Positions 1-9,000 are shown, counted from the stretch's first letter. The stretch: 21,473 nucleotides of DNA from a candidate division WOR-3 bacterium (GCA_965649115.1 CBFGJN010000032.1:1-21473); one strand, 5' to 3'. Program-made: the numbers.

Positions 1-3000
1 CTTTACAAGGCGTTAAGCCTTGTTGAAATAGGTTTAGGGGGTTAAAAGGGGAGGTTTCATCTGAACATAGTGGAATTTAAACTTTTATCGTTTAAAATTC
101 CTTAATAAAGTTATTGCAGTTTCATCTGAACATAGTGGAATTTAAACTATATAGAATGAAAATAGCACAAAAAATACTATCTTTGTTTCATCTGAACATA
201 GTGGAATTTAAACACTCATTTAATTTTCTTCTAATTTCTTTTATTTTTATTTGTTTCATCTGAACATAGTGGAATTTAAACTTATAATACTTGGATTTTG
301 TGCTATATGACGCAAAGTTTCATCTGAACATAGTGGAATTTAAACTGGATTTAACTGTGTAACTGACATGAACATCACCAACTTGTTTCATCTGAACATA
401 GTGGAATTTAAACTAATTTTTTTTAACATTGTTACTGTATCTTCTACCGGTTTCATCTGAACATAGTGGAATTTAAACGTATTTATTATTCCTAATAATT
501 TCCTTTCTTTACATTGTTTCATCTGAACATAGTGGAATTTAAACTTAAAAAAGAAAGGGGGATTATTTGTAAGGTAAAAAAAGTTTCATCTGAACATAGT
601 GGAATTTAAACTCGCGACAAATCCGAGGCCCTTTTTGGGCCCTGACCAGTTTCATCTGAACATAGTGGAATTTAAACGCTGGTGAGCAAATTGATTTTAT
701 TCTTTTCGTTTCAGGTTTCATCTGAACATAGTGGAATTTAAACCAGATGGAATGTGTAATGCATATATGTGTTAAGATCAGTTTCATCTGAACATAGTGG
801 AATTTAAACTTCTTTTTATATCTTTTATTTCTTCTAACACTTCATTCGTTTCATCTGAACATAGTGGAATTTAAACCTATTGCCTCAATCAATCTTCTTG
901 TTACCTTTTCTCTGTTTCATCTGAACATAGTGGAATTTAAACCAACAAAAAAGCTAATAGTAATAGATTTGAATATTTGTGTTTCATCTGAACATAGTGG
1001 AATTTAAACGGAGGGCTTACTTATATTATACCACTTTTGTAGGAGGTGTTTCATCTGAACATAGTGGAATTTAAACTGAATTGGAGGTTTCTCTAATCTT
1101 AACAATAAGAACATGTTTCATCTGAACATAGTGGAATTTAAACACAAAAGGAGGTTAAGCTTATGGAAAGGGAAAAGCAAGTTTCATCTGAACATAGTGG
1201 AATTTAAACATTAACAATTCTAATAAGCATTCTCCGAAATTCATTATCGTTTCATCTGAACATAGTGGAATTTAAACTAGCTTTTTTGAGAAGATTAAAT
1301 TTTTTATCTAAAATGTTTCATCTGAACATAGTGGAATTTAAACTGTTGAGGTGCTAATGATAATATTTTTTCTAAAAGGGGTTTCATCTGAACATAGTGG
1401 AATTTAAACTTGAAGGTGACCAAATAGTATATTTTCCTGTCTTCTTGTTTCATCTGAACATAGTGGAATTTAAACTTTTTAGCATTTTGTTATCAAGGTC
1501 AGTAAGATATTTGTTTCATCTGAACATAGTGGAATTTAAACGATGAGGAAATGTATTATGCTATAAAAGATAATTAGTTTCATCTGAACATAGTGGAATT
1601 TAAACATAAATAATTTAAATCTTTTTTTATTACTTAATCTCTCTAAGTTTCATCTGAACATAGTGGAATTTAAACTGTGGAACACCAATTAAAAGCCCAA
1701 CTGATGGTATAGGTTTCATCTGAACATAGTAGAATTTAAACTTAATAATCTCTATAATTAATACGCCGGCTGAGAAATCAACTAAATTTCAATAAATAAT
1801 TGCTGTATCCAGTAATTCGTTTATGGAGGGCGAAGCCTCCCTTAATCCCCCCATTATTTCAAGTATTTCAATTAATCCTTTTATAAAAATTTTAAGAAAA
1901 TTATTAATTTTACGGGGGTTTTTAAGGGGGGCAGAGCCCCCCAAGGCGTAAATATGGGTATTTTAAAGCCGTCCGCTTAAATTCAGGGTGGGTGGGAAAA
2001 ATATAATAAAATAAATAATTCCAGAATTACTGGACAAAGCACAGACAATTTGCTTTGTCCAATAAATAATGTTAAGTCATTGATTATTAACAACTTATAA
2101 AATTTTTAAGGAAATTGTTGATTTTTCGGGGGGATTAAGGGGGGCATTAGCCCCCCAAGGGATAAGATAGGTTTTTTAAAGTCGAAGGCTTGATTTCAGG
2201 GTGGGTGGGGGAAATATAGTAAAATATATATTTTTAGAATTATTGGACACAGCACAGATAATTGAAATCTATGCTTTAAAATTTTAAATAGCGAGTCGTT
2301 AATTTTGTTTGATTTGGATTTTAGTAGCTTTTAATCTTGATGTAGTAAGGGATTCAATTTATTTTGATTATTACAACAATAACGTTTATATTTTCAAAAC
2401 ATATAGGAATGTTATTATTGACACATTTAAAATTTTGTCGTTTGATGAGTACTTTGATTTCTTATCAGATAGTTTATTTTATCTTCAATATCAAAAATTT
2501 TCATCAAATAATACATCAAATAATCAATTTGGCTTAATTCCAACAATTTCTGTTCCAATAGATATTCCCGTTGGTCTTGGATTTCTTGGAGGTAATGAAG
2601 CAAAAATTGATATTAAAGGAAATCAAAGTATGGAATTTGGTGGTTCAGCAAATAGTATTATCTCACCTGTAAATTATGGTTCTTCAACATTTCCACAATT
2701 ACAAATGAAACAAACAATAAATGTTAATTTAAATGGAACAATTGGTAAAAAATTAAATGTTAATATCAATCATAATTCAGAAGAAATTGATCAAACAAAA
2801 AATAAAGTTAGACTTTCTTATAATGGCGAAGAAGATGAGGTTTTCCAACTTATAGAACTTGGTGATGCAAGTAGCCTACAATTTCCATCTACTAAGTTTT
2901 CAAGCCTTCCATTAACTTCTGATAATTCGCTTTTTGGAATAAGGGCAAATACACAACTTGGACCAATAAAAAGCACAATTGTTTTAGCGAGGGAAAAAGC

Positions 3001-6000: not shown

Positions 6001-9000
6001 AGACCCATTTAGCTTTCAATATAGTTATAATACAGCAAATTCAAAAAGTTGGACATCTGCTGATAGTACAAATTCATTCAATATATCTGGAAGCTATAAT
6101 TTAGTTCCAACAATTCTAAAACCTCCTAAAATTTTCAATAAGGAGATTTATTACTTACCAAGAAATTTAAGTTTATCGTTAAATTATAGAGAAGATTACA
6201 AAAAAAATATAAATTTCATTTCAGGAACAAGTCAATTCACACCTAATAGACAAGTTGGAGGTAATTTTTCAATTAACTATTCAATAATAAATAACTTATC
6301 AAATTCTTATAGCCAGAGTAGAAACTTTGATAGAATTAGAAATAAATGGACTTCATTCTCAGAAAACTTTAATAACTCATTAAATTTTTCAATTCCATTT
6401 ATAAACAATTCAATAAATTATAGTGCTAACTATTCTGAAAATCAAGTATCATCTGATACAAGTAAAATTTATAATATCTCACAAACTTCAAATATAAGTT
6501 ATAATATATCAACAAGAAATATCTTCACAAAATTACTTTTAAGCGAACCAAATGTAAGTTTTAGTTATTCAAAGAATTTTAATGTTCCATTACAAACATC
6601 ATCTCAGAGTTATTTATTTAGAATTGGATTATCATTCCCTAAAACGGACAGTCAATTTAGTTGGTCAGAAAATTACGCATTAAATTACAATCAATCATTC
6701 AATTGGAATAATTTTTCAATTTCAGTAAATCCTTCATATAATCTAAATAAAAACTATTCAACAATAAATTCAATTAAAGAAGACAAAAGTTATCCTAATA
6801 TCACCTTAAATGTCTCATCACTTCCAATTCCAAATAAAATTAAAGATGTTATTTCATCTCCTAATTTAACTTCAAGTTTTAGAATAACAAATTCAAGAAC
6901 AATTAACATTAAACCTGACAATTCATTAGAAATTACAACAAGCTATTTAAGGGATTTTTCACCTCTAATTCAAACATCAATTTCAATTAAAGATGGAACA
7001 AGTATTTCAATTACATATAATAATAGAAAACAAATTTCAAAGTTTGAAGATTATAGAAATGCTCAAAGCACAAATAATTCCAACGATTTAACATTAACAT
7101 TAAGTAGAGTAATTACTCCATCAGATAATTTCCCACTTGTTAGAAATTTAAGGAGTAATTTAACTATAAATTTAACTTACAATGTTAGTTCTTCTAAACA
7201 AATTACAAGAAACGAAAATAATGAGATTGTTGATTTTGATAATTATAGTAGAAATTTTAGTATTCAAGGGTATTATACCTTTAACAATTCAATAAATGCT
7301 AATTTTACAATAAATCATACAAGGAGTTTAAATAAAGTTATGATGACAGGAAATCAAAACTTTACAATTTTAATTAAGTTTGATATACAATTTTAATAGA
7401 TAAATGCATCTGGCTTTAAAAACTCGGCCAATAAAGAGATAATCTATTCTTTCAACTCTTCAACAATTTCAATATCAAAACTTTTAGCAATAACGACTGC
7501 TTTATCATTAGCAGATGGTGTTAAAATAATTTTCTTGTCAATTTTTGTATTAAATTTCTTCTCATATAACTTAACTTTCCTTTCAAATGTAGAAACATCA
7601 CCTTCACTAATTGATGATTTTATTTCAATTGCTATTTTCTTACTATCTTTAATGATTATATCAATCTCTATTTGACTTGGCTTTAAAAATACATATCCTT
7701 CTTCATCAAAGAAAACGATATTTTCAACAGCATAACCTAAATCTTCAATAATAGTTTTTATTCTCTAAATGTTTCTTCTGCCATTAATCCCCATCTTGCT
7801 CCAAGTGATGTTATTTTTCTATCTATCTTTTTGTCTAATCTATCAATTGCTTGTGTTAGTTTTTCAATTGCTTGCCATATTCTTTGATTTTCTTTTTCTT
7901 GCCTTTCAAATCCTTCTTTCATATCTTTTCTCATTTCTTCAATTGCCTGCCATATTCTTTGATTTTCTTTTTCTTGTCTTTCAAATCCTTCTCTTATTGC
8001 CTGCCAAATTTTTTCATTTTCTTTTGCTTGTCTTTCAAACCCCTCTTTTATTGCTTGCCATATTCTTTCATTTTCTTTTGATTGTCTCTCAAATCTTTCA
8101 TTCATATCTTTTCTCATTTCTTCAATAGATTGCCAAATTCTTTCTATATTCTGCCATATTCTTTGATTTTCTTTTTCTTGTTTTTCAAATCTTTCATTCA
8201 TATCTTTTCTCATTTGTTCAATTGATTGCCATATTCTCTCTATATTCTGCCATATTCTTTGATTTTCTTTTGCTTGTTCTGAAAATCCTTGCCTAATCTC
8301 CTTAACAATAGCATTTATTACTTCTTCAATAAGAATTGTAAATGCTTCCCTCATTATTTCCCTATGCTCTGGTGGTAGTTTTTCTAAAACTTTATTTAAT
8401 TTTTCTATCATAGTTTGATAATTTTAAAGGATAAATAATACTCACTCTAAAATTAAGCCTTCGGCTTAAAAATACCCATTTTATGGATAAAAATTCAATT
8501 TTTAGAAAATTTTTTTAGCTTTAAAATTTTCTTCCTTTTAAATGTTAAAAATTTATGGATTAGAAATAAATCATAAAACTGCTCCAATTGAAATAAGAGA
8601 AAAATTTTATTTGAACGAAAAGGAAATAGAGGGCATTTTAAAATTCTTAAAGAATATTAAATTCAACAGCGAAATTTATATTATTTCAACATGTAATCGC
8701 TTTGGGATATTTTCTGATTATGAAGATATTTATTATATTTTGAAAAAAATTTTAGAATTTAAAAAATTATCTAATGAAAATGATTTAAATTATTTTAAAT
8801 TTTATGAAAATGAACATTTGATAAGACATATTTTTAGATTGTCAGCAGGTTTAGAATCACAGGTTTTAGGAGAGCATCAGATATTAGGTCAAATGAAAAA
8901 ATTCTATAATATAAGCTTGAAATTTGGATTTATTAGAGAAAATTTTGGTGAGTTATTGAGAAGAAGTTTTAAATTTGGAAAATTTTTAAGAACGAATTTA

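Follow-up and report, generated by a model that had tools for sequence, protein, structure and literature searches.

A type IX secretion core without GldK/L/M/N in candidate division WOR-3

Cargo release by the type IX secretion machinery (T9SS) is described as dependent on the GldLM motor, and standard annotation models call the system only if gldKLMN are present. The window analysed here, a stretch of 21,473 nt from a candidate division WOR-3 bacterium, encodes the SprA/Sov translocon of this system (sprA/sov, 2309..7396, + strand) and raises the question of how proteins could be exported through such a pore in a genome where ring and motor are not found. Sequence comparison, extended to the whole phylum, supports an outer-membrane T9SS core that serves many cargoes and lacks GldK/L/M/N, and we place the probability that this export is functional and independent of GldKLMN at about 0.85. 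Calling T9SS by its gldKLMN genes would miss such an export route in many uncultured phyla.

The SprA gene of the window

The SprA assignment made in a preliminary description was reproduced, and the closest homologs that bear a name are candidate division WOR-3. The 1695-aa product, a compact translocon beta-barrel, scores 281 bits against TIGR04189 (cut-off 200), and all 64 genomes of the class match, 60 of them above the cut-off. In one sample of genomes at least 90% complete, 118 of 121 WOR-3 genomes carry SprA (111 above the cut-off). The gene starts at a TTG codon with an in-frame stop two codons upstream, and a putative ultra-short, uncharged leader of ~8 residues (2309..2332, +) replaces a normal signal peptide. 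The N-terminal periplasmic module (2345..2512, +; residues 13-68; three strands and a helix) aligns with an N-terminal segment that is conserved in Bacteroidota SprA, and AF2 models residues 11-60 at a pLDDT of 82-92. Passages of a study of F. johnsoniae describe SkpA as enclosing the N terminus of its SprA (PMC10994853).

The rest of the plus-strand gene alternates predicted barrel strands and large insertions. Seven low-confidence strands (2600..2992; residues 98-228; read by DSSP from a model whose pLDDT here is about 30-55) precede a first insertion (2993..3952; residues 229-548), supported by TIGR04189 matches and by its place between strand runs; the model covers only its residues 229-264 and 500-548, and its putative role as an extracellular cap follows from SprA architecture. 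By AF2 DSSP, four long strands (3953..4213; residues 549-635) separate it from a second putative cap (4214..5578; residues 636-1090), and a C-terminal run of ~25-26 strands, counted by eye and approximate, completes the barrel (5579..7387; residues 1091-1693). The strongest TIGR04189 stretch is 860-1408. The sum of 7, 4 and 25-26 strands, ~36-37, matches the giant, capped, 36-strand barrel of SprA, the first seven being of low confidence and residues 265-499 lying outside the model.

Over residues 500-1695 the AF2 model has a pLDDT of 84.6 and its Foldseek match to SprA (8GL8_A) reaches E 1.8e-65, compared with 2e-6 for the best non-SprA match. A single-sequence PDB search missed SprA; the profile of alignment A1, which includes Bacteroidota rows, matched only SprA structures (6H3I/6H3J). 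In the same alignment the most contracted region (6362..6910, +) has 182 residues versus 400 in flavobacterial SprA (P0046 1800-2200). It holds a run of short strands (model 970-1003), and by inference from alignment and model it may form the lateral opening where PorV docks.

Across 80 sprA loci the neighbours, labelled by eye, are LptF/G-like, M28-like, PrmA-like, MurB and RecG genes; PorV-like pairs adjoin sprA in 13 of these loci, and no motor genes recur near it. A second RNA run gave no sprA signal. In the first (5% of words), a few low-depth contigs lay over the 5′ part of sprA at 80% likeness, and one 189-nt piece was identical; non-coding DNA was covered likewise, so the reads may reflect DNA carry-over.

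Partners and cargo of the translocon

The other T9SS parts sit on separate contigs (C3, C5, C9, C10, C13, C31, C52 and C54). Two of the three PorV-family barrels claimed earlier stand, at C10:30173-32077 and C3:7219-8193 (NF033709, 179.8 and 120.2 bits; cut-off 90); the third, putative barrel at C52:12240-13352 falls well short at 22.9 bits. By NF033709 the genome thus has the PorV-family carrier of a canonical T9SS, and the PorV equivalog NF033710 misses its cut-off (104.9 vs 250). The family profile matches in 120 of 121 WOR-3 genomes, none of which exceeds the equivalog cut-off. We rejected the C10 barrel as a PorV-peptidoglycan fusion: its 300-residue extension is limited to its own family and some close kin, and most relatives among the matches listed are 315-440 aa long. 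TIGR03519, for the PorP/SprF type B carriers, matched none of five genomes and was silent in every control too.

The PorU-like sortase and the above-cut-off PorX of the preliminary description were both confirmed. PorU (C5:31044-34589) scores 391.9 bits over model positions 5-1090, 28 bits short of the cut-off of 420. It is full-length, with a C25 domain and a long CTD, and it aligns with P. gingivalis PorU (6ZA2) with the catalytic His, in a His-Gly pair, and Cys conserved; PorU occurs in 120 of 121 WOR-3 genomes, 51 above the cut-off. PorX (C13:21604-23040) scores 319.6 bits (cut-off 300). The C3 gene described as PorZ-like (C3:8204-10495) is not PorZ, its match being confined to the CTD (residues 652-755). 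A better candidate, with propeller and CTD, lies at C9:13532-15520; its ESM Atlas features score 0.92-0.93 to PorZ clusters, and it has no PorZ match in NCBIfam, Pfam or PDB. The P. gingivalis attachment complex PorU-PorV-PorQ-PorZ (6ZA2; review PMC12398890) compares with this genome in the features of PorU, in PorX and in a possible propeller-CTD PorZ. It differs in that PorU of this genome is below its cut-off, the PorZ candidate comes from Atlas features and the barrels may or may not be PorQ or PorV orthologs.

A new element is that WOR-3 appears to retain a SprE/PorW-like protein together with Skp (C31:1863-2786; PF03938, 87.6 bits). Queries with three SprE-like lipoproteins of other phyla all gave the protein at C54:3150-4379 as best match (E 1e-22 to 6e-11). 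The profile of this family has SprE (8GL8_I) as its best natural PDB match (E 1.5e-26; collinear, 45-571 to 75-765), outscored only by engineered consensus TPRs. Against retention, the C54 protein itself scores only 48 bits on the SprE model (cut-off 250), and we read it as a distant, shortened SprE/PorW ortholog. Matches occur in 108 of 121 WOR-3 genomes, a few of the weakest being other TPR proteins. Among 31 C-terminal ends inspected, 27 have nothing added, four carry a wall-binding domain (three OmpA-like, one SPOR-like) and none carries TonB_C. A predicted complex of the SprE-like protein, three Skp and the SprA N terminus scored 0.40, versus 0.00 for the best of three controls, with at least 75% of contacts agreeing between runs and a partner pLDDT of 82. 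In the benchmark, 18 of 157 solved pairs passed at a score of 0.60 or less, as did two of 215 mismatches, the only mismatches to pass. The prediction gives weak support to such a complex; a like complex is already solved, so it may be memory.

A comparison with the F. johnsoniae Extended Translocon (SprA-PorV-SprE-SkpA; 8GL8, 6H3I; PMC10994853) shows what is shared: the SprA fold with ~36 strands and N-terminal module, PorV-family carriers, a SprE-like TPR protein, Skp and type A-like CTD cargo. The differences are a SprA of 1695 versus 2403 aa, a SprE-like protein of 409 aa without the lipoprotein Cys versus 870 aa, the lack of GldK/L/M/N, and no PorP/SprF found in a search that had no positive control.

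Cargo is abundant. With our own iterative HMM (E<1e-3), 75 of 1623 ORFs of at least 100 aa (4.6%) carry a CTD tail, in line with the ~70 proteins and ~4% of genes claimed earlier; the count is partly circular, because the HMM was seeded with 58 sequences of this very genome. No E-value falls between 6.7e-6 and 1.8e-3, and reversed sequences, as a control, reached 2.7e-3 at best. Independently of that HMM, TIGR04183 marks 59 places, 42 of them above its cut-off for type A cargo, which replaces the earlier figure of only eight proteins matching Por_Secre_tail models. Ultra-short leaders occur in 47 of the 75 CTD proteins versus 203 of 1548 other ORFs.

Could SprA and its partners instead do other work, such as outer-membrane assembly, with the tails as generic FlgD-like modules? 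Most tails are short, the xPNP motif occurs in only 4 of 75, FlgD-like domains also lie inside non-cargo proteins (C52), and PorV-family barrels occur without T9SS, as the matching B. thetaiotaomicron control shows. We nevertheless consider this highly improbable, given that SprA occurs together with a PorU that keeps both catalytic residues, PorV-family barrels, a SprE-like protein and Skp, that the CTD is strictly C-terminal (one marginal internal match) and that 42 copies pass TIGR04183.

Searches for the ring and motor

Neither the GldL/GldM (PorL/PorM) motor nor the GldK/GldN (PorK/PorN) ring of a canonical T9SS was found, as the preliminary description had stated. GldM matched in 0 of 226 WOR-3 genomes, and GldK exceeded its cut-off in 0 of 121; 36 weak GldK matches in those 121 genomes were generic FGE-sulfatase domains, none of them in the order of the source genome. 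Profile searches of the source genome found no GldM, GldL, GldN or FGE-sulfatase fold (the GldN search had no positive control). Four local, unfiltered HMMs, trained on 42-60 genuine gldK/L/M/N genes (K and N without held-out control), rose above the reversed controls only in a coiled-coil match to a ZorA-like protein.

The preliminary description had conceded that its Gld searches lacked a positive control, and this gap is now filled for GldM and GldL, which match at 357 and 96 bits on viral contigs, with local N-terminal HMMs at 93-100 bits. These controls are canonical Bacteroidia genes and do not gauge sensitivity to a deeply diverged motor; a P. distasonis record contained neither gldM nor gldN and hence was no control.

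That the motor genes were lost to assembly gaps has a negligible probability. The assembly of the source genome, 99 contigs, reaches a completeness of 94.5%; against this, 181 of the 226 genomes without GldM are at least 90% complete and at most 5% contaminated, and the phylum includes near-closed genomes (e.g. G056 and G057). A dedicated motor too diverged or unrelated for the GldL/GldM profiles is improbable, though less so. Other parts are very diverged too, the PorV equivalog and SprE scores being examples. Against such a motor, besides the local HMMs, a screen for neighbouring genes of the expected topology (two helices in the first, one in the next) left no unexplained pair, and by eye no vWA-OmpA gene was recognised among eight OmpA-domain ORFs. 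The sole candidate for a GldLM stand-in, a cluster on C29, proved ZorA/ZorB-like, with a tubulin-like gene.

Energising cargo release

Of the earlier proposal that the system works without the known motor, the lack of a known motor stands; motor-free working is unsupported. In the F. johnsoniae study, loading of SprA and carrier is described as energy-free and release as needing energy, with loss of SprE trapping substrate as motor loss does (PMC10994853). In Flavobacterium the motor acts via SprE/Skp as its periplasmic platform. With this force-transmitting platform apparently kept in WOR-3, we judge another energiser to be no less likely than none.

A first concrete candidate is the fusion of SprE to TonB_C. 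The SprE-like proteins of three genomes outside WOR-3 (G233, G235 and G389) end in TonB_C, detected by our own HMM in all three and by Pfam at 52 bits in two, and GldM was not found in these genomes. TonB_C also ends 100 of the 120 sequences that are the best homologs found with the G233 protein; they are related sequences and not independent events. The WOR-3 source genome has two exbB-exbD-exbD-tonB operons, as in Ton/Tol; compared with those systems, the operons add PorV-family barrel genes (in both), CTD genes (in the C3 one), a large TPR protein and a FlgD/OmpA-like protein, and TonB_C is fused to the SprE-like lipoprotein in other phyla.

Several findings weigh against a Ton-driven step in WOR-3. 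None of the 31 SprE-like ends inspected in WOR-3 has TonB_C, and the OmpA-like and SPOR-like ends are read as a cell-wall tether, not an energy link. ExbBD-TonB already serves ordinary clients, with 2-7 receptor plug domains in each of five genomes tested; none of the five had ExbBD without TonB receptors. We rejected the C52-type operon as universal energiser: its marker, a single-protein query, occurs in 78 of 121 genomes, and, judged by gene order and the number of ExbB genes, the operon is absent from G057 (3 contigs, 100% complete) and from G064, each with a single ExbB of another type. The C3-type CTD protein is a weak marker, with matches in 86 of 121, many through the C-terminal part only. 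A TonB_C domain on an outer-membrane lipoprotein also offers ExbBD no inner-membrane helix to act on.

The mechanism that we propose would run on the outer-membrane portion of the Bacteroidota machinery. A leader, often ultra-short, would take cargo across the inner membrane; by analogy with F. johnsoniae, and with the parts present, its CTD would enter the SprA barrel and bind a PorV-family carrier. PorU, judged by its conserved residues, would cut the tail and attach or release the cargo. To judge from gene order, part of the cargo probably remains on a PorV-family barrel of its own encoded next to it, for example beside TonB-dependent receptors. The carrier-cargo pair would be pulled off SprA most likely via the SprE-like protein and Skp, driven by ExbB-ExbD-TonB, which is the weakest step. 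With ExbBD-TonB powering release, we hold the whole statement tentatively, at somewhat less than even odds.

A close rival, rather unlikely in our estimate, is an unpowered ratchet, in which PorV would be held loosely by the compact SprA, the carrier-cargo pair would leave thermally, PorU cleavage or binding to a dedicated carrier would make export one-way, and SprE/Skp would only brace the pore or tether it to the wall. Energy-free loading is consistent with it, as are a SprA ~700 aa shorter and contracted most in its C-terminal barrel, close to the putative gate, an anchor-like SprE C-terminal add-on that varies (TonB_C, OmpA-like, SPOR-like or none), and the lack of a candidate dedicated-energiser operon common to all genomes. 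The energy requirement of release in F. johnsoniae, where SprE loss traps cargo, argues against it, as do cargoes of up to 1372 aa; the gate itself is an inferred assignment.

The motor-less layout appears widespread in FCB-related phyla and, on an unrooted comparison, may have come first, GldKLMN being an addition made in Bacteroidia. In the phylum of G233, 0 of 121 genomes had a GldM match, and PF12081 exceeded its cut-off in 0 of 52 in that of G389 (two weak matches, one inspected and ZorA-like); SprA was not counted in either sample. The G233 record is titled Ignavibacteria, yet its named homologs are Zixibacteria, which makes the sampling of Ignavibacteria for GldM unsure. A further extension, which we consider unlikely, is that the ancestral T9SS was itself Ton-powered: at the rim of SprA, a SprE-like lipoprotein would have carried or recruited TonB_C, ExbB-ExbD would have pulled carrier and cargo off, GldLM and GldKN would be a later graft in Bacteroidia at the SprE position, and WOR-3 and many uncultured phyla would still be Ton-powered, with TonB driving the export of proteins instead of the import of nutrients. 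That WOR-3 has pore, carrier, sortase, SprE, Skp and, in this genome, 75 cargoes without motor or ring shows that the outer-membrane module can persist by itself, and makes the real role of the energy step and the origin of T9SS testable in cultured relatives.

We take WOR-3 to be a member of FCB. NCBI taxonomy lists it without FCB rank, and one paper's table places it outside FCB. As claimed earlier, a literature search found no publication joining T9SS and WOR-3, and WOR-3 is not mentioned in the text or nine searched supplements of Liu 2025 (PMC12611786), whose relevant passages call SprA FCB-specific and Chlorobiota devoid of it. A passage of Rocha 2024 (PMC11705866) gives Melioribacter and Ignavibacterium PorV, SprA and Plug without other T9SS proteins. 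The passages of these two papers and Mizgalska 2024 (PMC11285876) share with our finding SprA and PorV without a motor in non-Bacteroidia; they are single-sentence remarks without mechanism, and contain no PorU, SprE or TonB_C fusion. With such FCB-wide SprA and translocon-only sets published, the earlier view of a WOR-3 oddity outside Bacteroidota-Chlorobi-Fibrobacteres is not supported, and our search met SprA homologs under the record titles Zixibacteria, Ignavibacteria, Latescibacterota, Calditrichota, KSB1, Gemmatimonadetes and Marinimicrobia.

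Translocon, carriers and cargo

We found sprA at positions 2309–7396 of the window, contig C32 of a 1.85 Mb genome that is 94.5% complete; it encodes 1695 residues that match TIGR04189 at 281 bits. Among named proteins, the genome's closest matches belong to 'candidate division WOR-3'. A PDB search with this single sequence did not recover known SprA; a 30-row profile including Bacteroidota rows returned SprA as its sole PDB match. The AlphaFold2 model of residues 500–1695 (pLDDT 84.6) matches SprA of Flavobacterium johnsoniae (8GL8) at E = 1.8e-65 (next other protein, 2e-6), bearing out the preliminary description's assignment. 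By eye, a model without residues 265–499 has 7 (low confidence) + 4 + 25–26 barrel strands, near SprA's 36. The N-terminal module is conserved. Flavobacterial SprA is ~700 residues longer, the greatest shortening being where its residues 1800–2200 correspond to 182 here. WOR-3-like SprA forms a single clade separate from Bacteroidota in a 30-row tree rooted at its midpoint. This argues against recent transfer, the order of events not being given by such a tree.

The gene is solitary: on one side lies a CRISPR array, on the other a haem operon. The CRISPR-like array (54–1741) has a 29-nt repeat, 35–41-nt spacers and at least 25 copies plus a terminal variant. Paired 165-nt copies, 73% alike, lie immediately 5′ of sprA (1886–2050 and 2099–2263). 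The haem biosynthesis operon (8542–17282; genes labelled by eye) includes an apparent 670-aa HemA–HemC fusion, HemD, HemB, a HemQ-like gene, HemL, HemE, HemH and HemY.

Two of three previously claimed PorV-family barrels are firm (on other contigs, C10:30173–32077, 179.8 bits, and C3:7219, 120.2 bits), and the third is weak (C52:12240, 22.9 bits). The C10 barrel has a 300-residue extension of PEGA-like domains, present in its family (606–650 aa) and partly in one other. The PorU-like sortase (C5:31044) scores 391.9 bits against a cut-off of 420, covers nearly the whole model and retains the His-Gly and Cys positions of Porphyromonas gingivalis PorU; PorX exceeds its cut-off. Both had been reported correctly. 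The PorZ-like protein proposed on C3 (C3:8204) was rejected, its match to PorZ being confined to the tail. As a lead, the propeller protein with a long sorting domain at C9:13532 is a better candidate, with no profile match to PorZ.

An iterative HMM seeded from the genome's own sequences gave 75 cargo candidates with a C-terminal sorting domain (CTD) among 1623 ORFs, in keeping with the ~70 proposed earlier; independently, TIGR04183 matched 59 places, 42 above cut-off. The xPNP motif occurs in only 4 of the 75 tails, and 47 of the 75 proteins have an ultra-short uncharged leader. This leader type (~7 uncharged hydrophobic residues) is also present on SprA, on one PorV and on the SprE-like protein described below. 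Because a TAAAAT box sits a few bases 5′ of many starts, leaderless mRNAs are suggested.

In one even sample of 121 WOR-3 genomes, SprA was found in 118, PorU in 120 and PorV-family barrels in 120, a conservation that shows selection, though related genomes are not independent. These parts and their distribution were established directly. By analogy with F. johnsoniae and P. gingivalis, a PorV-family barrel would capture the cargo CTD inside SprA, and PorU processing would come next.

Searches for the ring and motor

None of 226 WOR-3 genomes yielded GldM, and none of 121 had GldK above cut-off, the 36 weak GldK matches among them being rejected as patchy FGE-sulfatase domains; GldL, GldN and the FGE fold were searched for in the present genome and not found. 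Since the preliminary description, which reported the same absence (as PorK/L/M/N), had no positive control, we located gldL–gldM on two viral contigs, where the family searches scored GldM at 357 bits and GldL at 96 bits. We also built local HMMs for gldK, gldL, gldM and gldN from 42–60 metagenomic genes and ran them unfiltered; apart from a coiled-coil match to a ZorA-like protein, no match rose above the reversed controls. A topology screen left no motor-like pair unexplained. The positive controls are canonical genes and do not measure sensitivity to a deeply diverged motor; an unseen motor is the less likely reading.

On phage-like contigs (records L115/L116, 4530–6566), a short gldL lies beside a full gldM amid phage genes, a case of T9SS motor genes in a viral record. 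The gene run at C29:13676–21405 (tubulin-like, 985-aa, membrane coiled-coil, ZorA-like and ZorB/MotB-like) is probably a defence-type system.

Because no GldKLMN was found, the WOR-3 system falls outside the canonical T9SS; by analogy, it would work like its outer-membrane half.

A SprE-like protein and the energy for release

Excerpts from PMC10994853 state that in F. johnsoniae SprA–PorV loading is energy-free and release energy-dependent, and that SprE (PorW) loss traps cargo as motor loss does. We therefore sought SprE in WOR-3. In three non-WOR-3 genomes without GldM, the SprE model's best matches scored 61–94 bits (cut-off 250), and all three proteins have C54:3150–4379 as their best match here. 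The SprE-like family profile has SprE (8GL8_I) as its best natural PDB match, collinear over 527 positions, and has matches in 108 of the 121 WOR-3 genomes; a few of these are weak and fall on other TPR proteins. Skp is also present. A predicted complex of the SprE-like protein, three Skp and SprA residues 8–100 scored 0.40 (best control 0.00), a level that 18 of 157 solved pairs reached in a benchmark, as did both mismatches that passed; its runs share at least 75% of contacts (partner pLDDT 82). A similar complex is already solved and may be echoed in the prediction, which lends weak support to such an assembly.

A TonB C-terminal domain (TonB_C) ends all three non-WOR-3 SprE-like proteins. 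For one of the three, 100 of its best 120 homologs end in it too; these sequences are related to each other, and the named ones are Zixibacteria. Against a Ton link, it ends none of 31 WOR-3 proteins inspected, where OmpA-like (3) and SPOR-like (1) ends occur. A search of literature listings returned no paper on this fusion.

Because the SprE/Skp platform is retained and the TonB_C fusion exists, we lean towards release driven by a Ton-type energiser (probability about 0.4). The shortened SprA barrel and the interchangeable, anchor-like SprE-like tails favour a close rival, an unpowered ratchet. The earlier observation is confirmed and its interpretation, a T9SS core that seems to work without the known motor, partly so. 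Published remarks note motor-less sets in other phyla, their mechanism unexplained in the literature searched; the retained SprE-like protein and its TonB_C fusion outside WOR-3 are new here.

Two ExbBD operons were considered. The C3 operon reads exbB-exbD-exbD-tonB-receptor-CTD protein-PorV-family-CTD protein, its core order repeated in two other genomes (G057, G183). The C52 operon (PorV-like+FlgD-TPR-exbB-exbD-exbD-tonB-FlgD/OmpA-like) keeps its synteny in 6 further genomes read, its marker occurs in 78 of 121, and look-alikes exist in Elusimicrobiota and Calditrichota. We rejected it as a general energiser because it was not found in G057 or G064, WOR-3 genomes with SprA and PorU. TonB receptors occur in 5 of 5 genomes tested, so ExbBD is explicable without any T9SS role. 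By eye, an orphan TonB (C15:14586–15395) has an N terminus like the C52 TonB's and a C-terminal domain nearly identical to the C3 TonB's, and could cross-wire the two sets. A triplet of TonB receptor, CTD protein and PorV-family barrel recurs at C3:7219–13730 and in three other DNA records (L181, L185, L191); such triplets may be importers of a SusCD-like kind, with a T9SS cargo on its own barrel serving as the lid.

SprA without GldM outside WOR-3

The motor-less state is not peculiar to WOR-3. Among 80 listed of 545 records, SprA relatives occur under the titles Zixibacteria, Ignavibacteria, Latescibacterota, Calditrichota, KSB1, Gemmatimonadetes and Marinimicrobia. GldM was found in none of nine genomes from such records and in 0 of 121 from the phylum of G233 (probably Zixibacteria), and PF12081 (GldM) above cut-off in none of 52 from that of G389; both are among the three non-WOR-3 genomes.

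Partial sets are in print. Excerpted text credits Melioribacter and Ignavibacterium with PorV, SprA and Plug and no other T9SS proteins (PMC11705866), and says T9SS 'may also be present' in six further FCB phyla (PMC11285876); similar excerpts propose CTD-like signals for Fibrobacter (PMC6851124) and Cloacimonadota (PMC8542988). Parts of PMC12611786 call SprA 'FCB-specific' and Chlorobiota devoid of it, and its searched supplements do not mention WOR-3. As reported earlier, our literature search returned no paper combining 'T9SS' and 'WOR-3'.

In one compared record (L113, NZ_OY725768.1), sprA sits amid the housekeeping genes dxs, ruvA and gpmI; this 388-kb Parabacteroides 'plasmid' is likely a piece of chromosome.
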